From a virus (lineage: Duplodnaviria; Heunggongvirae; Uroviricota; Caudoviricetes), in the IMG/VR virus record IMGVR_UViG_2737471838_000004, positions 1 through 55,334 of that record: a stretch of DNA of 55,334 nucleotides; one strand, given 5' to 3'. Below are positions 4,092 to 46,255 of this stretch, piece after piece. Numbering within the stretch: the stretch's first letter is position 1; each line of letters begins with the position of its first letter. The position numbers were made by a program, and so were the translations under genes. The notes beneath the pieces are model-generated. The model searched no databases and was not told the origin of the DNA. It saw only the letters and a list, made by a program, of their open reading frames with translations.

Positions 4092-4267
4092 CGCAATGAC
4101 TCCATTATGTTAATTAACGGAATAATTCTACCATTTTGTGATCTATGTTGCATTTTATGCTTACACAAAATGTTTTGTTGATTTATATCAATATACAAAA
4201 TGTGGTTTTGTCGGATATTTAAGCCACCGGATAAACCGGATGAACCAACAAGAATGAGGATTCAAAA

Positions 4268-4516
4268 ATGAAAAACATGTTCAAAGTGGTATTATTCGCT
4301 GCGGCTGTTGCTCTTACTGGTTGCGCTGTTGACAAAGATGCTGCATTGCACAACCTGCCAAATAGCGGAGTGATTCCGCAAGAAATTGTCTATGATGCTA
4401 ATGGTCATCTTGTCTATGACACTGAAAAACTTCCGTATACTGGACAATGGTGTCATGAACTCGATCACAACATGCGCCGCATCGGTAGCCCGTCGAATTG
4501 TGTAGCTAACTACTAA
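4268..4516 (+). CDS. small secreted lipoprotein (moron, opposite strand to tail genes)
   Basis: 82 aa; signal peptide MKNMFKVVLFAAAVALTGC with lipobox LTGC; AGGA RBS; own terminator; located between J and stf. Confidence 0.6.
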   Translation: MKNMFKVVLFAAAVALTGCAVDKDAALHNLPNSGVIPQEIVYDANGHLVYDTEKLPYTGQWCHELDHNMRRIGSPSNCVANY

Positions 4517-4550: not shown

Positions 4551-7500
4551 TGACCAAGAACCAGAACTCCTTGTAACAAGCGCAAGTCCAGCCCTTCTTT
4601 CTGTACCTGTACTGGTGTTGGTGTATTCTTCTGTTATTGTTATGGTTACTTTTTGCGCCGTGATCCCTGTGACGCAATGTGATACCGTAAATCCAAATTG
4701 AGGCGTAGATGCCGCCCTCACGACTGAATATGTTTTACTATTTCCATTAATGTTTATTGTCACTTTTATGGTTGTTGACTGAGAATACTGATAGTAAGTC
4801 AGGTGATAAGGAATCATCACAAAAACGGTTTTAGAAAGCGAACTCGAAGACGAATCTGTATAAGTTTTAGTAACAGAACGCGATGCACTGTCCGACTGGT
4901 TAGGGAATGATGCTTGAGGTATAAAGTTAGTTGACGCGACATCGCCTACAAAACTTGTAGCCTCTAGCGACCCTTTAAATTTACCGCTATTTGCATACAC
5001 CGCCCCCCTTACCGTTACGTTGTTAAGCTCCGCGCTACCGTTTTTATTAATCATCCAGCCAGCCGAACCGGCTTTATAGTTGGTTGACTGTATTTGCTGT
5101 GCAATTTTAGCTGTAGTGATTGCTGCATCTGCAATTTTAGCCGTTCCTATTGATGCGTTTTTAATAAACGCTTCGCGCACATACATTGCACCATTTGTAA
5201 CATAGAAAGGTGTCGTATATGTGCCGTTTGCCGCCGTCATTAGCACAAAACGGTCAACAAGGAAAATGCATTGTGATTGTGTGCTACTTCCCGATCCGGT
5301 CATACCTAACGAAATCCCGGACGCATACTTCATGCCGTTATTGTCAGTAGCGATCTTAATGCTCCACGTTGCCGACATATCTGTTTCAATACCGGCAATT
5401 GCGGTTTTGTTTTCCTCGATTGATACCGATTGCCCGTCGATTGAGGCCGTGATACTTTCGATCTGCGTGGCGGTTGATTCCTTGTAAGATGTAAACGCTT
5501 CGCCCCACTCCGTGATCGATGCTTCGTTTGCTTCCAGTGATGCGCTAATCTCCGCAAACTGTGTAGCGTTGGCCTTTTCGTGGGTAGCAAGTGCCGTTTG
5601 CATTTCGGTAATGGCTGCCGACACATCATCATCGATTTGGGCTTGCAATTGCTCCAGTTTCTGCGCGGTCGCCTCCTTCTCTGTAGCAATAACTGAATCA
5701 ATGCGCTCAATTTCTGCTTTCGTTTCCGCTTTCTGGCTCTTATATTGCGCCGTTAACGATGTGCGGGTTCTGGCGTTAGCTAATGAGTTATTCATAAGCG
5801 CAATGGCTGCGTTTTGCAGGCTGGCGCGGGTCTGCATTAGCTCGTTTTCCTGCTCCGTCAATTCTACGCTGATTTCGTTAATCTGGCTTTCGTGCTCCCC
5901 AATTCCGTCCTCATTGTTTTTTATACGTTCTTCCAGATCGGCGGTTGATTCCTTCAGGTCGGTAATAGTCTGGTTCATTTCTTCCACGTCACCCATTAAA
6001 CCTCCTGTTACTTCGTCCATGGAGTCCTTGATCATGTTCTGGAATTGTTCGCTTTCCATAACTTCATTCAGCACGGCATCCGTGATTTCTTCGAAGTTTT
6101 CGGAAGGTTTACCGCTGGCTTCGATAAAGTCAGATACACCGAAAGCGTTTTTTGTGCGCACGTAAACGTAATACGTGTGCCCCGTTGCCATCCCGCCGAA
6201 GGTCCATTGATACCCGCGCCCGGTGAATTGCGCTGATGTGGTTACTTTGGATGGATCTGTGATCTGATTTTCCCCTGAGTAGTAGAACTCGTATGCTGTA
6301 TCAGTGGTTAGGGTTGTTTTGCTGATCGGGTACACCGTTGCCTGAAAAACACCAGGCACCCAATTAACGCCGACGGGGGCCGCTGGCGCACCAATAACCA
6401 GATCCACAATACTTTCTGCGCCCTTCATGCCAGTGTCATTACGACCGCGAATACCAAGCGTGTAGCTGCCTGCGTCGAGGCCATAAAATTCATAGCGGTA
6501 ATTCGTGGTTTCATAACTTGCCACCACGCGACCGTCTGCATTATATACGCGGATTTCAAAGGTAAGACGATGCGTTGTTGTCTGTGTTTCCCATGTTGCG
6601 CGGCATTGAACCGTTTCAGAACCAGCGTTTAACACTTTCAGATTTTCAATGTTAGGTACGCGGAAGTGATTAAGCGTGTCGTTGTTGATTTCGAAGACTG
6701 CGCCTTCATCAACTACGGCCTGTTTGTTAGGGTCGTGCTGTGCGGCTTCGATAGTGTATACGCTGTTATTTTCTGTTTCCGCTACGCTGGTGATCCTACA
6801 TAAAACGGGTTTTGCTGCTTCAGTCGATACAGCAAAAACAGTGCCATTGCGAATCCATGCCGGGGCCGCAGCAAGGGTAATATTGTTTCCGTTAATTCCG
6901 GTGATCTGGTGTTTTTTAAATTTACCATCGTTATCAAGTAATCTGATGGTGTCACCAGCCGCGATATATTCAGAATCAACCTTATCGACCGTTATCACTT
7001 TGCCATTGTTCGCCACGATACGACCGCCCAAACGAGCACCAGCGCGGTTATTGTCGAGGATCTCGATAATATCCCCAGGGGTGAAGTGAATGGCGTCACG
7101 GGCCATTTTAAACGTAAATTTCGACGGCTCGCGTTTTGCTGTTTCGATCAGCCATTTACCAGCGCGGTAAGCCTGTCCGCGAGAAGTACAGCCGAACGCC
7201 TCCAGCGTGGTTTCGTTGTAGCCGTCGCGGGCGATCAGTTCATCGTCAGAGACATACTCTTTTGACTGTTCCCAACCGTTACCCGGATCAGTCCAGGATA
7301 CAATCACGGCGTTGTAGCACTCAGCGCGGGCAAGGCTCGAACGGGTGAATACACCATCTACGACATTTGCGTTCGTGATAGTTGCAATCGGATCTTGTGG
7401 CGCATCAATCATCACTGTAAGACGTTGCCCATCCCATAACGCAATACCACGGAACATGCCAGCTATATTATCAAGTAAGTCGCGGGCGCTCATTTGCTCT

Positions 7501-10283: not shown

Positions 10284-10988
10284 TTAACCGACCTTGCTTG
10301 ATCCGGGGAAACATGAAATTGGTAACGGATTGGGGCGCGGGAAACGCAAACGGCAACCGCTCAGGCGGTGGCTGCATTTATCCAGTTTTGGATCGCTGGT
10401 CGATTCGTCTTTATCTGTAGCTACAGGGCCGCCACTGTATCCGCAACCGTCGCCCCGGTATTGCCACTGGCAAACGTCAGCGAGGATTGTGCGCCCAGGG
10501 ATAACTGCCTTGTCGGCATCAATTGGCGTTGAAAGTTCATATTGCACCTGGTCGGCTGTTTCTTCGCTCATCGCCTCAACGACGTAAAAAGATACAGCCT
10601 CGATAGATGGATCTGCATCTGGATTGCCATTGGGGAAGTTGACAGCGTCCAGATATTTTACTTCCACCTGGCGGCGCGTAACCTTCATTCCTCGCAGGTC
10701 GTTGAAATCGTTGTTCATCCCGGTGATTAGCCCGCCAATGTTGGCTACTACCATTTGCGGGCGCGAGTAAACGCCTTCGTTTTTCATTTCGAAGCCAGTA
10801 GCCTCGATTGGGTAGCTGTTGTAAGCCAAGCCCTTCCAGATAACCGGGCCGTAATAGCCATTCGTGCCGGAATGGAAGCGGATAACCTCGCCACCCAGGG
10901 GCGTGAGGTCTAATTCAAACAAGTCAATTACCGCTCCGACCCCTGCATCGACGGAATCAATAATCATTTCTGTAGGTATGCTGCGCAT
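10284..10988 (-). CDS. L: minor tail protein L
   Basis: 234 aa; clear similarity to lambda gpL (FLDAVNF.NGN, RGD.CGYSG, DKCS..LSGC). Confidence 0.85.
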   Translation of the reverse strand: MRSIPTEMIIDSVDAGVGAVIDLFELDLTPLGGEVIRFHSGTNGYYGPVIWKGLAYNSYPIEATGFEMKNEGVYSRPQMVVANIGGLITGMNNDFNDLRGMKVTRRQVEVKYLDAVNFPNGNPDADPSIEAVSFYVVEAMSEETADQVQYELSTPIDADKAVIPGRTILADVCQWQYRGDGCGYSGGPVATDKDESTSDPKLDKCSHRLSGCRLRFPRPNPLPISCFPGSSKVG

Positions 10989-11041
10989 TTTATCACCTTG
11001 TCATTTTGTGATCGCCATCACGCTAAATCATACCAAAACGG

Positions 11042-11070
11042 TTGATAGCGCTTTTTACAATATGTATATT
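11042..11070 (+). promoter_or_regulatory. sigma70-like promoter of moron cassette B (TTGATA-17-TATATT), -10 overlapped by inverted repeat ACAATAT-gt-ATATTGT
   Basis: near-consensus -35/-10 with 17-bp spacer in the L/M intergenic region, upstream of plus-strand ORFs. Confidence 0.4.
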
Positions 11071-11116
11071 GTACTCAAAAGGAAGCATGGTTAACAAAAT
11101 GGCGCGGAGGTGTTAT

Positions 11117-13533: not shown

Positions 13534-13560
13534 CCCCGGCATTGTACCGGGGTTTTGTTT
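13534..13560. terminator. bidirectional rho-independent terminator (cassette C / tape measure gene)
   Basis: stem CCCCGG/CCGGGG, loop CATTGTA, T-tract TTTTGTTTATTTG; preceded by TAAAAGATAA. Confidence 0.55.
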
Positions 13561-15907
13561 ATTTGCGGCGCGGTTGCAACATTCCTCCCGGTCGTTGCGA
13601 TTCCCTTGCCATCATTTTCATTGCTACGCGCTCCATCGTCTGCTCAAGTCTGCGGCTATCTTCGTCGCTAAATCCGTTTGTGGTCTGAACTGTGATTTGC
13701 ACAGGCATATTGATGCCGCCACCATTGAAGAGATCGCGGCCAGGAATTACCCTACCATTTTCGCCAGGAATCATATACTGACGCCCGTTGCTCGTCTGGA
13801 ATAGCTCAGGTATTCCGTGTTCCCCTACTCGATACAGGCTACCACCATTAACAGAACCACCATTATAACGCCCGCCACCAAAGATTGACGTTGCCAGCGA
13901 CATGATCGCAGAAAGCGCCGCAGCACCAGCCGCCGCCCAGCTACCACCAGTTGACGCAGCCGTAGCCGCCGCTGCCGGGGCCGCCGCCGCTGCAATCTGG
14001 CCTTGTGCCGCTACCGCGCCTGCCGTGGTACTTGCTTGCGTGGCCTTGCTTTGTGTTTCCATCATTAACTGATCTGCTATCCAGTTAGCGGCAATTTCTG
14101 ATAGTTTGTTGCCAACGGTGTTAAGTATGCTACTTCCCAGGTTGGCAAAAACCTCGCTTAATGATTGAGTACCGTTTAACAGTCCTGTAAGGGCATTGCC
14201 CATGCCACCTTTCAGGCCGCTGGCGCAAGCGCCGATCAGTCCGTTTGTTTCGCTTTGCGCCTGCCATTGCTCCCACTTCAGATCCCGGATCTGTTGTTCG
14301 TATTCCAATTGCGCCTGTCTCTGTTGCGCCTCTGTAGCGCCCAGGTCCAATAGCATTTGCTTTCTTACGGCCCATTCATTTTGCGCCTGTTTGATTGGGT
14401 CAATTTCGCCCTTAAGCTGGTCCATTGGGCTAACTATGTGGTCCCATTTGTCGCGTAGCTCATCAACAGGGATTTGCGCCAATTCGTCCTTCAGTTCCTT
14501 GCCTATACCTTTCTGCGCGGCCTTGTACTCAAGGAGGGTTATTTTTCCCTGGGCAAATGCGGCGTCAATGGCCTTGCCGTTCTCCAGTGCTTTACGCATA
14601 GCGGCGGCGTCTTTGTTGTACTGGTCAGAGACTTTTATACCTTCATCACCAAGCCGATCAGCTTCAGATTTCTTGTCTTTTTTGCCCTTTTTACCTTTTT
14701 TCGGTTTACCAACTGGCTGATCGAATCCCGTGATCTTACCATCGTCAGCCTCACCCTGTTTCTCCATGAACTCATCATAGGCGGCAGTTGCGTTTTTAAT
14801 GTCGTTTGCAAACGTCATGACCTTACCAACTGTAGGGCCAAATTTCTTCTCGTTGTTGCTATTTAGCTCTTCCTTGCGCTTGTCAATGATTTCCTTCATC
14901 CATTTGTAGCCATCCATTAGCGCCTTGATTGGCGTTACCATCCTGATAATCTCTTCCGCCACCTCGCCAGCCTTAACAGCAACATCATCAAACATGTCGA
15001 TAAATTCGCTGCCAGCCGTTTTTAGTGTATTGAAACATGTTGCGGCGAATTTTGCGCCTTTACCTAATCCCTCAACGCCACCAGTGATTAAGTCTATTGC
15101 CGACACAACGCCATCTGATATGCCGAAAAGATCGTCTAGCTGTTCGACAAGTCCCATAACCTCAACTTTAAGCTCGTTGAAGGCCATGCCGGATGTGCGC
15201 GGCAACTGTGCGAACTTCTCGTTTGTTTCCTGCGTGGCGGCCTGGATCGCGTTAAGCATCCTTTCAGCAGTGATCTTGCCGTCCAGCATTTCAGCGCGGA
15301 ACTGACCCATTGACAACCCCATCTGTCGGGCCATTTCCTGTATGATTGTTGGGGTGTTGTCACGGATTGAGTTAAATTCTTCAGCCTGCAACACGCCAGC
15401 ATCAATAGCCTGGCGGAACTGGCGCATGGAGTTTGATAGTTGTTCCGCAGACACGCCGCCCAGGTTGCCGAGTTTTTGCAGCGTGCTAACCAGGTTGAGG
15501 ACCTGGCCTTCCGTAGCGGATGTGTTTTTTAGCGATATAGCAAGACCTTGCCACAGATCGCCAGTATCCTTGAGGCTTTGGCCTGTTTCTTTTGATATTT
15601 CTTTCAGTCTATTGAAAACGCGTTCCGTGGCCTCCGCTTCACCTGTAAGCAGTTTGATTTTTACGCGAAGCATTTTTGCCTGCTCCGCCATGTCAATAAA
15701 CTGGCGAACCGCCTCCGCAGCAAGCAACAGATGAATGACCCTGGATAGTGCTTTGATTGAAGTCTTAAGCGTGTTCACCTGGCGGTCAGCGCGTTTTGCG
15801 CCACGCTCGATACTGTCAAAAGCCTGGTCCGCCTGTCGCTGAGCGACTAGAAGTTGACCAGTTTTTGCATCAACTTCGTAATAAATTGTACCTAAACTGG
15901 TGGACAT
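13559..15907 (-). CDS. tail length tape measure protein
   Basis: 782 aa; long alpha-helical protein with Gly/Ala-rich C-terminal part; positioned between tail chaperone and M. Confidence 0.85.
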   Translation of the reverse strand: MSTSLGTIYYEVDAKTGQLLVAQRQADQAFDSIERGAKRADRQVNTLKTSIKALSRVIHLLLAAEAVRQFIDMAEQAKMLRVKIKLLTGEAEATERVFNRLKEISKETGQSLKDTGDLWQGLAISLKNTSATEGQVLNLVSTLQKLGNLGGVSAEQLSNSMRQFRQAIDAGVLQAEEFNSIRDNTPTIIQEMARQMGLSMGQFRAEMLDGKITAERMLNAIQAATQETNEKFAQLPRTSGMAFNELKVEVMGLVEQLDDLFGISDGVVSAIDLITGGVEGLGKGAKFAATCFNTLKTAGSEFIDMFDDVAVKAGEVAEEIIRMVTPIKALMDGYKWMKEIIDKRKEELNSNNEKKFGPTVGKVMTFANDIKNATAAYDEFMEKQGEADDGKITGFDQPVGKPKKGKKGKKDKKSEADRLGDEGIKVSDQYNKDAAAMRKALENGKAIDAAFAQGKITLLEYKAAQKGIGKELKDELAQIPVDELRDKWDHIVSPMDQLKGEIDPIKQAQNEWAVRKQMLLDLGATEAQQRQAQLEYEQQIRDLKWEQWQAQSETNGLIGACASGLKGGMGNALTGLLNGTQSLSEVFANLGSSILNTVGNKLSEIAANWIADQLMMETQSKATQASTTAGAVAAQGQIAAAAAPAAAATAASTGGSWAAAGAAALSAIMSLATSIFGGGRYNGGSVNGGSLYRVGEHGIPELFQTSNGRQYMIPGENGRVIPGRDLFNGGGINMPVQITVQTTNGFSDEDSRRLEQTMERVAMKMMARESQRPGGMLQPRRK

Positions 15908-15940
15908 GATTTAACCTCGTAAAGTGTGATCCTGATCTCT

Positions 15941-15986
15941 ATTTTATACAAAATGGCTTCACTTCAACGAATACATTTTGTATAAA
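15941..15986 (+). promoter_or_regulatory. candidate promoter of moron cassette D (TTCACT-17-TATAAA) bracketed by a perfect 13-bp inverted repeat TTTATACAAAATG / CATTTTGTATAAA
   Basis: inverted repeat arms overlap the -35 upstream region and the -10; located just upstream of plus-strand small ORFs. Confidence 0.4.
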
Positions 15987-16280
15987 GAGGCTAAAGGAAA
16001 GGGATAGAGTAAAGGGATTTAGAAGACCGGATTAACCGGAGGAAGCAAAAGAGGATAAGAAAATGAAAAACTACTACCGACCCAACGAGCATGAGCACTA
16101 TGCCGACTTTATCGAAGAAATGCTGAAAGCACTTAAAAACAAGAAATAAGCTGGGCAGGCAAATGGACACAATCAAAACAGTTATAGATGTATATATTAC
16201 GGCATGGTTAGCATTTAATGTGATGGCTGTGCTAGTGCTGGCAATGACAACCGAAGATAAACGTAATTAGGGGGTGTATC

Positions 16281-16583
16281 ATGGAAATGGTAATTTGCTT
16301 CGTAGGATTCATCGCAACTATGGTTGTGGCTCAGAAAAAACATCTGAATATGCTATTGGCATTCTTTGGTGCGCTGATTTGCTGGCCTGCTGTATTGATT
16401 TACGCACTGTGTGTTAACAAAAAGATGTTTAAACACTACGTCGATGCATTGACTTTCGTTAACATGGAGTACCCAAACGCAACTGACGTACAGAAAACAC
16501 AGGTTGCAACTTACCTATACGATAACGTGTACGATATTCACGACCTGGATGAGGCAAGATGCAGATTTGCAGCATACAAATAA
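16281..16583 (+). CDS. small integral membrane protein (moron cassette D)
   Basis: 100 aa with two hydrophobic helices; preceded by two mini-ORFs (about 16063..16149 and 16164..16271) and followed by a terminator. Confidence 0.5.
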   Translation: MEMVICFVGFIATMVVAQKKHLNMLLAFFGALICWPAVLIYALCVNKKMFKHYVDALTFVNMEYPNATDVQKTQVATYLYDNVYDIHDLDEARCRFAAYK

Positions 16584-16591
16584 AGATAAAG

Positions 16592-16618
16592 GCCCGGTTA
16601 ATTCCGGGCTTTTTCTTG
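16592..16618. terminator. bidirectional rho-independent terminator (cassette D / tail chaperone gene)
   Basis: stem GCCCGG/CCGGGC, loop TTAATT, T-tract TTTTTCTTG; preceded by TAAAGATAAA. Confidence 0.55.
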
Positions 16619-17278
16619 CTCGCGTTTTTTCATCAATTCCAGCACCCTTTTAGCGGCCTCCATTTGCTCATCATAATCACGTTTATTTATCTGAACGTTT
16701 GGCTTACGTTTCTCGTTTCTTTCGTCTGGTGGCGTTTTAGCGCGTACAGCGGCCCTATATCCGGTCATTGTCATACCCCACGCCTCAGACTCAGACAACC
16801 CCAGGTGAGCAACGGCAGAATAAACATACTCAAGGATGTCGAATGTTGGCTTGTACTCACCCTCCTGGTTTGTGACCGTGTCTTCATCTGGTCCGTCACC
16901 AATTAAACCGTGATACATGCAGTGTTGCGCCAGTGTGATAACGTCGCTGGTGGGCATCAATCCAGGTTTTAGTCTTAACTTACCAGAAGGAGTAAAGCTG
17001 CATTCGCCCAATAACGGGCCTATTTCGTCCTCTGAGCAACATTTCAGGACGTGGATGGACGTTTGCACTAACTCACCATAACAACGCGCCAGAATGCGAT
17101 TGCGGAGGTCTGTATCCGTTGGCAAGCGTTGTGGGTATTTGCCACCATGCACCGTTGCGAAATATTCAACCAGTTCCCTGTCACTGCCGATCTTAGCCAT
17201 TGCAGCAAAGCAGGGATTGAATTCGTAACGTCTGCCATCAACCACAACCGCAAACTGTCCTGTTCGAACGTGAATCAT
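16598..17278 (-). CDS. putative tail assembly chaperone
   Basis: ORF 16598..17287; sits between major tail and tape measure genes, acidic with basic C-terminal tail; no obvious G/GT frameshift partner; start probably ATG at 17278 (GGGTGA RBS). Confidence 0.4.
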   Translation of the reverse strand: MIHVRTGQFAVVVDGRRYEFNPCFAAMAKIGSDRELVEYFATVHGGKYPQRLPTDTDLRNRILARCYGELVQTSIHVLKCCSEDEIGPLLGECSFTPSGKLRLKPGLMPTSDVITLAQHCMYHGLIGDGPDEDTVTNQEGEYKPTFDILEYVYSAVAHLGLSESEAWGMTMTGYRAAVRAKTPPDERNEKRKPNVQINKRDYDEQMEAAKRVLELMKKREQEKARN

Positions 17279-17286
17279 AGTTGTCA

Positions 17287-17315
17287 CCCTAAAAATAAAG
17301 GGGCCAAATGGCCCC
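17287..17315 (-). terminator. stem-loop terminator/attenuator after major tail gene
   Basis: GGGGCCATTTGGCCCC hairpin followed by TTTATTTTT on the minus strand. Confidence 0.45.
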
Positions 17316-23361: not shown

Positions 23362-24742
23362 TATCGCGGCTGGAGGTATTCGCCTGATTATCTTCTTCAC
23401 CTTCATCATCGTTTTCCTCTTCCGTTTCCACTACACTGGCAGGGCCATCGTATCCGGCAGCCTCGCGGATCTCGTCACCGCTAAATATTTCTTCACCAGT
23501 AGCCAAACAAGCCTGATTGATTTGTGCCATTTTGTGTGCCGCTTCCAGTAGTTCGGCTTTGGTCATGGCGTTCAGGTCGTCCCATATCACTGATACGTCA
23601 ATTGGCATACTGATAAGGCGGAGATCTGCCATCTTGCTGAATAGATCCTCAAGTTCACCGCCGATTTCCTCCCTGCGGGTCATACAGCGGCTGTTGAAGT
23701 AGCGGAGGTCTTCGGTTGATGCGCGTTCGCCCTGCTGGTTCCCAACCAGGATGCGAGTCGGAATATCAATACCAGCGGCGGCGGTTTGCAGGTTGACATC
23801 ATAGGTTGCTGACGGGTCAGATACGGCAGTCACCAGCGGGCTAACTGTGGCCCCTTGTAATGCCATCATCACGTCGTTACCCTTATTCATTTCATCCGCT
23901 GCCTCGTTGAATTTTTCTCGAAGCTCTGTGACGTCGCATCCGTATGTGGCTGCCAGTGACCGGAAGTCAATATCCTTGTCGAACGAGATAGCTAACTGGC
24001 GGGCAGCGTTTTTCAGGAATGATTCACCGCTACCCCCTTCCACTTTCTCAAGCGACACAAAGGCGTTATATGACGGCTCAAGGAAGGCTATTGCATCATC
24101 AGAATAGTCACCGAAGATGAATATGCGGTCAGGGTGGATCCTTCTTGCTATGGTCTTACTGTTAATGCGTTCCTTGTACTCCCACCACGTCGGCAGGCCA
24201 TAGTTTTCATTATCCGGGTTTTCTTCGAAGTCCTTCGGCGTCAGAGCACCAGCCCATGCCGGGGTAAATTTGGCAATGCCTACGCCTTTTGTCACAGGCT
24301 GGTCCCACGCCTTACCATCTCTGACATGAATCAACAGGCCAGCATAACGACCGATGAGGCGGCGGCGGTCACATTCGGCAATGACGCGCCAAAATCTGTT
24401 GTCGAACTGTTTCTTGATTTCTCTTTCCCAGGGTGTTTCCTTTTCGGCCTTCTCGTCTTCGGTTCCCTCGATTAGCGTTGGCATGGTTCTCCAGCAGGTA
24501 GTGACAATCTTTTCTACAGCACCATGAGCGATACCACCGCGACGATACAGCTTGTATAGATCGTCATAGGTTATTTCTTCTTTGAATCCGTATTCACTCC
24601 ACGCAGCATCACGTTTGGCATCTATCCCCATAGTGAATGGGTGTGCTGCGGCATAGCGGGCGTAGGCCGCCTGGCGTTGAGACAAGGCAGCATTAACCGC
24701 CAATTCTAAATTGGATGGCATAATGTTTACTCCTGAATACAT
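23351..24742 (-). CDS. portal protein
   Basis: 463 aa; acidic C-terminus, position after TerL; start may be ATG at 24721 (AGGAG RBS) rather than 24742. Confidence 0.75.
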   Translation of the reverse strand: MYSGVNIMPSNLELAVNAALSQRQAAYARYAAAHPFTMGIDAKRDAAWSEYGFKEEITYDDLYKLYRRGGIAHGAVEKIVTTCWRTMPTLIEGTEDEKAEKETPWEREIKKQFDNRFWRVIAECDRRRLIGRYAGLLIHVRDGKAWDQPVTKGVGIAKFTPAWAGALTPKDFEENPDNENYGLPTWWEYKERINSKTIARRIHPDRIFIFGDYSDDAIAFLEPSYNAFVSLEKVEGGSGESFLKNAARQLAISFDKDIDFRSLAATYGCDVTELREKFNEAADEMNKGNDVMMALQGATVSPLVTAVSDPSATYDVNLQTAAAGIDIPTRILVGNQQGERASTEDLRYFNSRCMTRREEIGGELEDLFSKMADLRLISMPIDVSVIWDDLNAMTKAELLEAAHKMAQINQACLATGEEIFSGDEIREAAGYDGPASVVETEEENDDEGEEDNQANTSSRDNAI

Positions 24743-31297: not shown

Positions 31298-31593
31298 GAT
31301 TCAACCCTTCTGGTTTGATGGGCCATCCGGCCAGTGTTTTATTTTTCTTCGTCTCATTTAAATCCTAAACACTCAGCGTATTCGTCAATGCTTAATGCTT
31401 CTTCACCTGGTGCCAGCAATTCAAAGTAGCGGGCGTATAGTTCAAAAACCCATGCTGGATATTTAGCGTTAGCGTTCATTTTCTTGTCTCCCCTTCCGTC
31501 TTCTTTGACTTATATATAACAAAACGGCACTGCCGAAACAATGCCATTCTGTATACTTTGCGAGGTAGATCACATTTATTGATGCGAACAACA

Positions 31594-37081: not shown

Positions 37082-37240
37082 AATGCTCTCTCCTTTTCAG
37101 GTGATTTCTACGCATTTCAGCGCTGCCGGATTTTTAAAGAGCATTTCGTTTGCTTGAAGTATACAAAATGGATACACCATAACAAGACAAAAAGCGCCAT
37201 TATGTGATCCGCATCACGCAATGACGCCATTTTGTAAATT

Positions 37241-40736: not shown

Positions 40737-40835
40737 TTTGGCTTCCTCCGCACCGTAAACCTTTTGATTTCGGCTTACAAAACGGATATGCGATCACAAT
40801 ACAAAATGTATATTTATGTGATCTGAATCACTCGG

Positions 40836-44113: not shown

Positions 44114-44262
44114 TATTTAATCTCCTTCGCTGTTAACACTACGTATAAGGCTTTATTCGCGGCGCTCCACATTTCGGCATCGTGAAGCATTTCCGCTACA
44201 GCCAGTTTGAATTGAAGCGCCTCGATAACCATAATGTCACCTCCTGCTGTTTACATTTTGTA

Positions 44263-44553
44263 TTAATGGTAGCGGACTTTATCCAGGGGTTTTTCCCCTA
44301 GTTGGCGTGGTTGCGTTGCGTGGTAGTAGTTGCCGCTTTCATTCTCCGTATACCATTTTACTGATCCTTTGCGACGTTCTTTAATGCTATTTGATTTGCA
44401 TCTTTCCTCGTTTGCAAAGCGAATAGCTTTATCCACATTGTCTGTTTTATTAATTGCAGGTGATGATTTTCTTTCGTTTTCTCTTTTTATTCTTCTGCGT
44501 TCCCTGGCATTCATTTTGCTATCACATTTGCCATACATAATTGTAACGGTCAT
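44263..44553 (-). CDS. N: N-like transcription antiterminator (arginine-rich motif)
   Basis: 96 aa; N-terminus MTVTIMYGK...NARERRRIKRENERK resembles the P22 N-type arginine-rich boxB-binding motif; AAGGAGA RBS; first gene downstream of pL-like promoter and nutL-like site. Confidence 0.55.
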   Translation of the reverse strand: MTVTIMYGKCDSKMNARERRRIKRENERKSSPAINKTDNVDKAIRFANEERCKSNSIKERRKGSVKWYTENESGNYYHATQPRQLGEKPLDKVRYH

Positions 44554-45056: not shown

Positions 45057-45704
45057 TTATGGCAGGTTCACGATCTTCGCATCCACTACCACGCCTATGA
45101 TTTTAGATTCTGGATTCATAGGGATTGGCGGATACAGAGGATTGAGAGAACGTAAAAGCCTTTGACCTCCATCAATAACAAGCTGTTTAAACGTAGGCGT
45201 TTGCCCTTCCTCCAGTTGGGCTATAACCAGTTTTCCGTCAATAGCTGGCGCGTGCGGATCGACAAGTATCATCGTCCCCGCTGGTATACTCAATCCTTGC
45301 GGCGCGTTCATTGATTCGCCTTTAGCTACCAGCCAATAACTATCATCTGAACAAATAACGCTAGTCGTAACGTGTGGTAATGTTGATCGCCTTGTGTCTT
45401 CCATATTGTTTACTGCGTCCTTCCAGTCAACAACCGGGTAACTGCCTAAATCACGCGGCGGCGCACCCGGCAACGTGTTAGAAACAGAATCATCAATGAC
45501 CATTCCGTCATGAGTAACAGTGAATTGCCGACGACCAAGCGCCCGCATAATCCGCGCAATGTCTTCAAGATTTGGCTCACGGCGACCATTCAGCCAGTGT
45601 GATAAGCCGCCTTTCGTGATCCCCATGAGATCCGCCAATGAATCCTGGCTCATGCCTTGCGCACGCATAAGCTGCTTTGCTAAGTCATACCATTTTGTTT
45701 TCAT
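45057..45704 (-). CDS. cI: CI-like immunity repressor (HTH + S24 LexA-like autopeptidase domain)
   Basis: 215 aa; N-terminal HTH (QDSLADLMGITKGGLSHWLNGRR), C-terminal S24 motifs GESM and FKQL. Confidence 0.85.
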   Translation of the reverse strand: MKTKWYDLAKQLMRAQGMSQDSLADLMGITKGGLSHWLNGRREPNLEDIARIMRALGRRQFTVTHDGMVIDDSVSNTLPGAPPRDLGSYPVVDWKDAVNNMEDTRRSTLPHVTTSVICSDDSYWLVAKGESMNAPQGLSIPAGTMILVDPHAPAIDGKLVIAQLEEGQTPTFKQLVIDGGQRLLRSLNPLYPPIPMNPESKIIGVVVDAKIVNLP

Positions 45705-45870
45705 GTCGCTACCCTATAACCTCAAAAAGTTTGACGCAAGTCACAAAACGTATTTTTCAAGCCTTGATCTTAAAGCTCCATTCTGTAAACTTTCAGACAA
45801 GGTAAGACCATACTTGCAAGGATGCAAGAAAAAAGATAATGGAAAGCACAAAAAGGCACATACCTTAAAA

Positions 45871-46009: not shown

Positions 46010-46255
46010 ATGTATTACGTGCGCAAGGCTTTTGATATTCGCCTGAATAACAATGATCCGGCGCAAAAACTCATCTTAATTGCACTGGCAACAAAGGCCG
46101 GATGCAACGGTAAAAGCGAAGTAACGCCGGAAGAGATCGCTGAAATGTGCGAAATTTCGTTACGAGATACTATCTCTGCACTTCATCAACTGAAAAGAAG
46201 CGGCCTGATCAGCCAGCTGCCAGGTTTCTTCTGTGTTTATCAGTTGATGTTCTAG
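46010..46255 (+). CDS. small HTH protein, first gene of rightward operon (possible Cro-like / initiator-N-domain paralog)
   Basis: 81 aa; AGGAG RBS; resembles N-terminal HTH domain of the following O-like protein. Confidence 0.45.
   Translation: MYYVRKAFDIRLNNNDPAQKLILIALATKAGCNGKSEVTPEEIAEMCEISLRDTISALHQLKRSGLISQLPGFFCVYQLMF

Follow-up and report, generated by a model that had tools for sequence, protein, structure and literature searches.

The inverted repeat and its surroundings

The stretch of DNA analysed here, called the window, comprises 55,334 nucleotides. It comes from a temperate coliphage of the mEp021/mEpimmI group and is 95% identical to mEp044 and mEp554 over the repeat region (PMC11893012). 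A small cassette on the plus strand is separated from the start of the tape measure gene by 155 bp, and the inverted repeat sits in this gap. The surrounding features are:

13559..15907, minus strand: tape measure protein gene (Pfam TMP_3, E = 2e-49), with its ATG at 15907, 36 bp from the left arm
15943..15955, plus strand: left arm of the perfect inverted repeat, TTTATACAAAATG
15974..15986, plus strand: right arm of the perfect inverted repeat, CATTTTGTATAAA
16027..16039, plus strand: leader hairpin CCGG-ATTAA-CCGG, also found in the leader of a lipoprotein cassette at 4110-4270
16063..16149, plus strand: first cassette ORF, 28 aa (MKNYYRPNEHEHYADFIEEMLKALKNKK), conserved in relatives with a long leader
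16163..16270, plus strand: second cassette ORF, 35 aa, hydrophobic, no family match (Pfam, PHROG)
16281..16583, plus strand: third cassette ORF, 100 aa, N-terminal half hydrophobic, no family match (Pfam, PHROG)
16592..16622, both strands: terminator-like hairpins closing the cassette; terminators are annotated here in related phages
16598..17287, minus strand: DUF6246 tail-region gene (Pfam DUF6246, E = 7e-57), the other boundary of the cassette slot

The arms are separated by a spacer of 18 bp (15956-15973). The initial annotation had described this perfect 13-bp inverted repeat at 15942..15954 and 15973..15985; the repeat exists, but both of its arms lie one position further along. Perfect pairing cannot be extended beyond 13 bp, and a repeat search returned an imperfect version with 18-nt arms at 89%. 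The window contains no other perfect inverted repeat of at least 12 bp with a spacer of 3-40 bp. One or more such 13-bp repeats arose in 4.5% of windows simulated with an order-2 Markov model; on its own, the repeat is only marginally unlikely.

The cassette consists of a promoter region, genes and a two-way terminator, and it points against the late operon from a position between conserved late genes. It has the organisation of a moron: a promoter block and a terminator flank the genes, and the cargo between DUF6246 and the tape measure gene varies. Relatives carry TagO-like proteins, a 138-aa protein, a 100-aa protein or others in this slot, while the flanking DUF6246 gene is the same in all related loci. 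The 28-aa ORF has no match in Pfam or PHROG. Its protein sequence is preserved, with synonymous changes in the DNA, among relatives that have the same long, purine-rich leader, and it may encode a genuine micro-protein or else a leader peptide.

The window contains a second cassette whose promoter and leader (4110-4270) are paralogous to those of the cassette studied here. They lie upstream of a lipoprotein gene (4268-4513) that matches phrog_12984 and probably encodes the Lpp superinfection-exclusion protein (PMC11893012). The two cassettes share TGTGATCTATGT, two operator-like sites, the CCGGATAAACCGG hairpin and a GAGGAT ribosome-binding site followed by ATGAAAAAC. In the lipoprotein cassette, the operator-like sites are ACACAAAATGTTT at 4163 and ATACAAAATGTGG at 4193, 30 bp apart and in direct orientation.

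Operator-like sites and a predicted promoter

The functional unit behind the repeat is a 13-bp pseudo-palindrome, ATACA-N3-TGTAT, of which the repeat holds two copies, here termed O_D1 and O_D2; its length would suit a single repressor dimer. The relevant elements are:

15925..15931, plus strand: conserved TGTGATC, the right part of a third operator-like site in most relatives
15946..15958, unstranded: operator-like site O_D1, ATACAAAATGGCT, matching 8/10 specified positions of ATACA-N3-TGTAT
15958..15963, plus strand: predicted -35 of the cassette promoter, TTCACT, of which the leading TT alone is invariant among relatives
15971..15983, unstranded: operator-like site O_D2, ATACATTTTGTAT, with both half-sites (ATACA and TGTAT) perfect
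15981..15986, plus strand: predicted -10, TATAAA, separated from the -35 by 17 bp; some relatives have TATAAG or TATAGA

The centres of O_D1 and O_D2 are 25 bp apart, or ~2.4 helical turns. The last base of O_D1 is the first T of the -35, and O_D2 covers the first three bases of the -10. The 13-bp arms correspond to the outer two-thirds of the two sites, which sit in inverted orientation. What had been annotated as a single dyad would therefore be better described as two adjacent dimer-type operators in inverted orientation, judging from this arrangement. The promoter elements proposed in the initial annotation, a -35 within the spacer and a -10 overlapped by the right arm, are borne out insofar as both hexamers are present with a spacing of 17 bp. 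TTCACT aligns with the -35 of the window phage's early promoter (TTGACT) and with that of its relatives' early promoters (TTGCAT). The -10 variants TATAAA, TATAAG and TATAGA all lack the near-universal final T. A consensus promoter scan called no promoter-like site at 15500-17000 because of this missing final T; the scan neither confirms nor excludes a cassette promoter.

Conservation of the locus was assessed from 19 homologous loci (17 distinct sequences), which had been retrieved with BLAST, not with the motif, from genome records of phages and E. coli. Mean column conservation over the 19 loci is 0.995 in the left arm and 0.968 in the right arm, compared with 0.83 in the spacer and 0.58-0.73 in the flanks. 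The left arm is invariant in all but one locus (18/19), and variants of the right arm are limited to A to G changes at arm positions 2, 12 or 13. An exact-pattern scan of IMG/VR added 42 contigs with the dyad at the same place. Across about 60 loci in phages and prophages of the mEp021/mEpimmI group, the spacer length is fixed at 18 bp and the arms are almost invariant, while spacer sequence, flanks and downstream cargo genes vary. A conserved block of ~66 bp fronts the variable cargo slot. Many relatives have a poor inner half of O_D2 (CTCCA); best conserved are its outer half and the flanking TTT/AAA, which the 13-mer does not include.

A third operator-like site, ATACAAAATGTGA, is present 29 bp upstream of O_D1 in most relatives. 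In the window its left half has decayed and only TGTGATC is left. The same heptamer can also be read as a CRP-like half-site (TGTGA-N6-TCTCT).

A degenerate form of the 13-mer with at most one mismatch occurs at seven sites in the window against 2.1 expected, a modest enrichment, and a pair of degenerate 13-mers 24-26 bp apart arises in 6% of simulations. The enrichment is much stronger for the 10-mer core, ATACAAAATG, with 8 copies in the window and 0.24 expected. Most copies are found in intergenic regulatory gaps, and one immediately adjoins the -35 of the early promoter that precedes nutR1/gp17. The conserved arms and the enriched core word together argue that the repeat is not a product of chance. 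We had also considered ATACAAAATG as a non-palindromic motif ('M1') of the UP element, DnaA box (TTATACAAA) or IHF site type; this was dropped in view of the 13-bp pseudo-palindrome and the sites adjacent to rep (see below).

Rep and the early promoters of related phages

The candidate binder of these sites is the CI-like immunity repressor Rep, which is encoded about 29 kb away. The immunity region of the window phage contains:

44904..44944, minus strand: early promoter, upstream of nutR1/gp17 and downstream of rep, with the same architecture as the repeat locus
45057..45704, minus strand: CI-like immunity repressor Rep (Pfam HTH_3 and Peptidase_S24)
45741..45791, unstranded: region divergent from rep, with the degenerate sites ATACGTTTTGTGA (45741-45753) and TTACAGAATGGAG (45776-45788)

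Rep of mEp021 has been shown to confer immunity, and the published work leaves its operators undefined (PMC11893012). A full-text literature search for an operator sequence of this repressor returned nothing relevant. The recognition-helix region is conserved, reading ITKGGLSHWLNGRREP in the window phage's Rep and ITKGAVSHWLNARREP in homologues.

The early promoter of the window phage comprises an O1 site, ATACAAAATGGAT (44944-44932), a -35 TTGACT, a spacer of 17 bp, a -10 TATATT and a degenerate O2 site, TCACAGGGCGTAT (44919-44907). O1 has one mismatch to ATACA-N3-TGTAT and O2 has three. Set side by side, the early promoter reads ATACAAAATGGA-TTGACT-N17-TATATT and the repeat locus ATACAAAATGGC-TTCACT-N17-TATAAA. 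In mEp013 the spacer of the early promoter has diverged, and the core word, the -35 and the -10 are unchanged. A CRP-like palindrome in the early-promoter spacer, entertained as an alternative repressor operator, is not conserved in mEp013, and CRP-like palindromes were rejected in this role.

Both sites in the region divergent from rep have at least three mismatches, and TTACAGAATGGAG overlaps the -10 of a predicted plus-strand promoter, TTGATC-N16-TAAACT. A further site found at -22 from rep in related lineages (see below) is absent in the window. Given the degenerate sites in the phage's own immunity region, the mEpimmI repressor may have drifted in specificity. The operon divergent from rep begins with the gene for an 81-aa winged-helix protein (46010-46255, plus strand), which has sub-threshold matches to Crp-like HTH domains and better matches to the N-terminal domains of replication initiators. 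No obvious Cro homologue is encoded between this gene and rep in the window, unlike in a Klebsiella phage (L269), where the gene opposite rep across the gap is an annotated XRE-family regulator.

The exact-pattern scan of IMG/VR identified a single contig (L029) that carries the same N18 dyad at another locus. There the dyad brackets TTGCAT-N17-TATATT, which is the early promoter, and boxA/boxB come immediately after it, along with the gene for an arginine-rich N-like protein. Upstream of the dyad is the gene for a repressor that is 46% identical to the window phage's Rep and has the same recognition-helix region. Three further related sites are present in the gap just upstream of rep in this contig, pointing to the 13-bp ATACA-N3-TGTAT as the true unit.

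We then collected 62 loci encoding Rep homologues and sampled loci of the diverged lineages for such sites. In the sampled loci of lineages with 36-53% identity, the rep start codon is preceded by three ATACA-N3-TGTAT sites, at positions of about -81, -48 and -22 relative to it, and Klebsiella phage ST512-KPC3phi13.5 likewise has three such sites upstream of rep. Downstream of rep, a pair of sites exactly 25 bp apart is found in ten sampled loci of the lineages with 42-53% identity and in the Klebsiella phage. The ten aligned pairs read [gt]ATACAwwwyGTAT-TGCAT...(12 bp in all)...ATACrTTTTGTAT-ATT. In all ten loci, the last base of the first site is also the first of the -35 (TTGCAT), and the -10 (TATATT) starts within the second site. 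The layout of the repeat locus (operator, 12 bp, operator) is the same, base for base, as that of these early promoters. The canonical early promoters also possess a third site, at a distance of 28-34 bp and in most cases 28-30 bp.

IMG/VR scans with variable gaps (N6-17 and N19-45) returned unrelated low-GC phages only. In one family of them (L072, L075, L082, L088, L089, L092, L093 and L096; GC about 0.26), ATACAAAATG-N28-CATTTTGTATAAT surrounds a consensus promoter, TTGACT-N17-TATAAT. The N28 spacing is one helical turn longer, and the arrangement could reflect convergence or a distantly related repressor family. A scan of genome contigs with a pattern that proved too loose (18 specified bases) gave 109 mostly irrelevant matches, made up of terminator-like hairpins and conserved alphaproteobacterial sequence; one contig (L191) was relevant. 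It has a perfect double palindrome, ATACAAAATGTAT-N12-ATACATTTTGTAT, at 5780-5830, upstream of an arginine-rich N-like ORF (5274-5528, minus strand) in DNA of GC 0.41, and no Rep homologue was found within the 8 kb examined. Among the irrelevant matches, TACAAAATGgatgtgatcataggtgtaCATTTTGTA recurs across alphaproteobacterial contigs (L100-L205), many of them from Pelagibacterales and Rickettsiales; it probably belongs to some conserved gene or element that has nothing to do with the window phage.

Candidate repressor operators and competing explanations

We think it reasonably likely that the repeat is an operator pair for the CI-like (HTH and S24 peptidase) immunity repressor, placed over a sigma-70 promoter that reads rightward into the cassette at 16063-16583. 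A repressor operator had been one of the possibilities raised in the initial annotation, and it gains support from the matching two-site geometry at the early promoters beside rep in ten sampled loci of phages that encode Rep homologues. The reading builds on what was observed at the DNA level: the sites, their spacing, their strong conservation and the identity of their geometry with that of the early promoters in diverged relatives. From these we infer that Rep of the window phage, a Cro-like partner, or both would bind O_D1 and O_D2, that the cassette promoter would fire at about 15993, and that binding would repress it. In a lysogen, Rep dimers would occupy both sites, probably cooperatively. 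Adjacent operators in lambda (OR1 and OR2) are about 24-25 bp apart, centre to centre, and the similar spacing of 25 bp at the repeat suggests that binding may be cooperative. The bound repressor would occlude the -35 and the -10, and the cassette would be silent. Upon loss of the repressor, by induction or in a fresh infection, the cassette would form an early transcription unit that runs antisense to the tail operon. The accessory genes thus probably answer to the lysis-lysogeny switch and are not expressed freely.

Several other explanations of the repeat need to be weighed. It could mark back-to-back divergent promoters without a dedicated repressor, the dyad being the two -10 elements for the cassette and the tape measure gene. 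In such an arrangement the -35 elements would share the 18-bp spacer, and each A/T-rich arm would act as a UP-like element for the other promoter. By symmetry, both strands indeed read ATACAAAATG-NN-hexamer-N17-TATAAA, and the outer TTT/AAA, which complete TATAAA without being part of the 13-mer operator, show conservation on either side. With a minus-strand terminator-like hairpin just upstream, after DUF6246, it could also be helpful to re-initiate transcription ahead of the tape measure gene. However, the minus-strand '-35' (nTCGTT) has at most 2/6 matches to the consensus, neither -10 has the final T, and the CATTTTG part is invariant although we know of no sigma-70 requirement for it. Promoters alone also leave unexplained why, in many phages, the 13-mers recur as a classic set of three operators just ahead of rep. 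We consider divergent promoters unlikely.

An RNA hairpin in the late (minus-strand) mRNA, within the 5' UTR of the tape measure gene, would have a 13-bp stem and an 18-nt loop and could serve in processing, stability or translation control. Transcription of the late operon must cross the repeat region, and both strands fold well compared with shuffled sequences (-17.6 and -16.9 kcal/mol; z = -6.7 and -5.3). In a longer fold, the flanks pair with the Shine-Dalgarno region of the tape measure gene; this long-range pairing, which might sequester the Shine-Dalgarno region, was discarded when it proved not to be conserved in relatives. The pattern of substitutions does not favour an RNA, either: 10/13 pairs are invariant and there is one double change only, a result equalled by 119/500 shuffles. 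One-sided changes create C-A mismatches on the minus strand in PAR, LSU61, 2017C and others, and on the plus strand in L047/L049. What is conserved is the sequence itself and not merely its pairing, and the same arms adjoin rep in other phages. A covariation test on the arms gave no significant signal, the arms being too invariant for the test to inform. An Rfam scan of 15700-16700 (E <= 1) returned three sub-threshold matches, all near the terminator, and no family match for the repeat. In its A/U-rich stem, its large 18-nt loop, its lack of a U-tract and its lack of covariation, the repeat resembles neither an intrinsic terminator nor a structured RNA. We regard a role as an RNA element as very unlikely, and the cruciform or hairpin put forward in the initial annotation as an alternative to an operator finds no support in these results.

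The site might instead be read by another protein, with the dyad incidental or bound by that factor. One candidate is host CRP, acting from TGTGATC and with the left arm as an alpha-CTD/UP region; another is a phage winged-helix protein. TGTGATC is conserved in almost every locus, always equally far from the dyad, and the window has 14 copies of it against 6.1 expected; the weak -35 is as in activator-dependent promoters. In addition, good TGTGA-N6-TCACA palindromes are present beside other ATACAAAATG sites at 11007, 37203 and 40817. The sequence TGTGA-TCCTGA-TCTCT has its centre at 15932.5, which corresponds to about -61 relative to the predicted start; the CRP site of the lac promoter is likewise centred at about -61, and class I CRP-dependent promoters have theirs near -61.5. 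One half of this sequence is perfect and conserved and the other is poor, and it could equally be the remnant of a third operator. The second half-site is poor in the relatives as well (TCTCT, TATCT or TAACT), where TGTGA forms the right half of the third operator-like site ATACAAAATGTGA. CRP-like sites overall are not enriched in the window (27 against 23.8 expected), and CRP would not account for the invariant right arm. As for a winged-helix protein, the Crp-like HTH matches of the 81-aa protein, the first gene product of the leftward operon, are weak and sub-threshold, and those to replication-initiator domains are better. Recognition by such a factor in place of the repressor seems improbable to us; CRP acting from TGTGATC as an additional input is possible.

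Finally, the repeat might be a chance palindrome, for which the simulation frequency given above leaves some room, or a DNA cruciform without a sequence-specific reader. Extrusion of a cruciform with an 18-bp loop is energetically very unfavourable. Conservation in about 60 loci amid variable flanks, along with the excess of the core ATACAAAATG, effectively refutes both, and we give them almost no credence.

Returning to the operator pair for Rep, we note that it would functionally resemble a CI/Cro operator pair of the lambda type, such as OR1-OR2 over PR or OL over PL, while the cassette resembles a moron. As in lambda, the sites are short pseudo-palindromes; they lie over the predicted -35 and -10 of an early-type promoter and are predicted to bind an HTH and S24 repressor. 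The homologues also share with lambda the three sites upstream of the repressor gene, facing a divergent gene (XRE-family in L269). The differences are that the site has 13 bp (ATACA-N3-TGTAT) instead of 17 bp, that the copy described here is about 29 kb from the immunity region, in the tail gene cluster, where it would drive an accessory cassette on the opposite strand, and that rep and the N-like gene are co-oriented in the mEp021/mEpimmI group, unlike in lambda-type layouts. The 14-18 bp operators of the phage 434/P22 type (ACAA-N6-TTGT) are similar in being compact dyads with ACA/TGT cores and an A/T-rich centre, but differ in half-site spacing and sequence. The S24 domain of P22 c2 and 434 repressors is homologous to that of the window phage's Rep, whereas their N-terminal domains do not align with the Rep HTH, with matches beginning at about residue 17 or later. 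In summary, the predicted departures from known systems are the sequence and 13-bp length of the site, its location in the late operon and the repression of accessory genes in the lysogen.

The last point concerns the nature of the cassette. With its own promoter region and terminator, its position between conserved tail genes and its variable cargo, it is like the lambdoid morons lom, bor and cor. Expression while the prophage is repressed is generally ascribed to classical morons. The cassette described here differs in having putative immunity-type operators over its promoter, which predicts silence in the lysogen. Apparent immunity control of this tail-region cassette alters what would be expected of it by default as a moron, and the small membrane proteins of the cassette would be more likely to act at induction or in early infection than as lysogenic-conversion factors. 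The paralogous promoter of the lipoprotein cassette does not sit easily with simple repression: it drives the putative Lpp exclusion protein, and lysogens are commonly presumed to produce exclusion lipoproteins.

A more far-reaching proposal, which we put forward tentatively and would not be surprised to see fail, is that the slot between DUF6246 and the tape measure gene is a hotspot for cargo exchange, and that the promoter residing there is a transplanted copy of the immunity-controlled early promoter, equipped with better operators than the early promoter of the phage itself. The cargo genes would then be 'anti-morons', held off by the prophage repressor. If this were true, their transcription, antisense to the tail operon, would start only minutes after induction or infection, and the same might perhaps apply to the Lpp cassette. 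The repressor-bound site might also serve as a distant looping partner or as a roadblock in the late region. More generally, we propose that ATACA-N3-TGTAT represents the previously undefined operators of the mEpimmI (mEp021-group) repressor; sites of this sequence are common to a wider family of enterobacterial, N-dependent temperate phages.

Repressor-type sites are also found far from rep in other short intergenic gaps of the window, at 4163, 4193, 11055, 37161, 40799 and 44251. In this respect the phage is similar to mycobacteriophage L5 with its 'stoperators' and to phage 186 with its CI flanking sites, which have repressor-type sites in intergenic gaps far from the repressor gene. The sites described here differ in being pseudo-palindromic and, at the repeat, paired over a promoter, rather than single asymmetric sites oriented with transcription.

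Further sequence elements are present in some of these gaps and elsewhere in the window. At 10985-11100, a strong promoter-like sequence (TTGATA-N17-TATATT) upstream of another plus-strand cassette is flanked by the operator-like words TACCAAAACGG and TTACAATATGTAT (11055) and by a CRP-like palindrome, TGTGATCGCCATCACG (11007). On the minus strand at 31500-31575, ATACAGAATG-N18-CGTTTTGTTAT is an imperfect copy of the N18 dyad that brackets TTGTTT-N17-TATATA; it is upstream of a 41-aa ORF and the lysis region, and mEp013 has no counterpart of this region. A site with perfect half-sites, ATACAGCTTGTAT (24545-24557), is located inside a structural gene and may be due to chance. The gap at 37100-37240 probably contains nutR2, with a boxA-like GCTCTTTAAAAA on the minus strand. 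It contains ATACAAAATGGAT (37161), an inverted TTACAAAATG (37228) and the CRP-like TGTGATCCGCATCACG (37203), as well as a plausible minus-strand promoter, TTGTTA-N16-TATACT, the -10 of which lies inside an operator-like site. A single operator-like site, ATACAAAATGTAA (44251-44263), overlaps the stop codon of the N-like gp17 gene. Finally, an intergenic gap of the early operon contains a perfect 13-bp palindromic site, ATACAAAATGTAT (40799-40811), 24 bp from the weaker TTACAAAACGGAT (40775) and adjoined by a near-consensus CRP-like palindrome, TGTGATCTGAATCACT (40817-40832); these sites (40775-40832) are largely conserved in mEp013.
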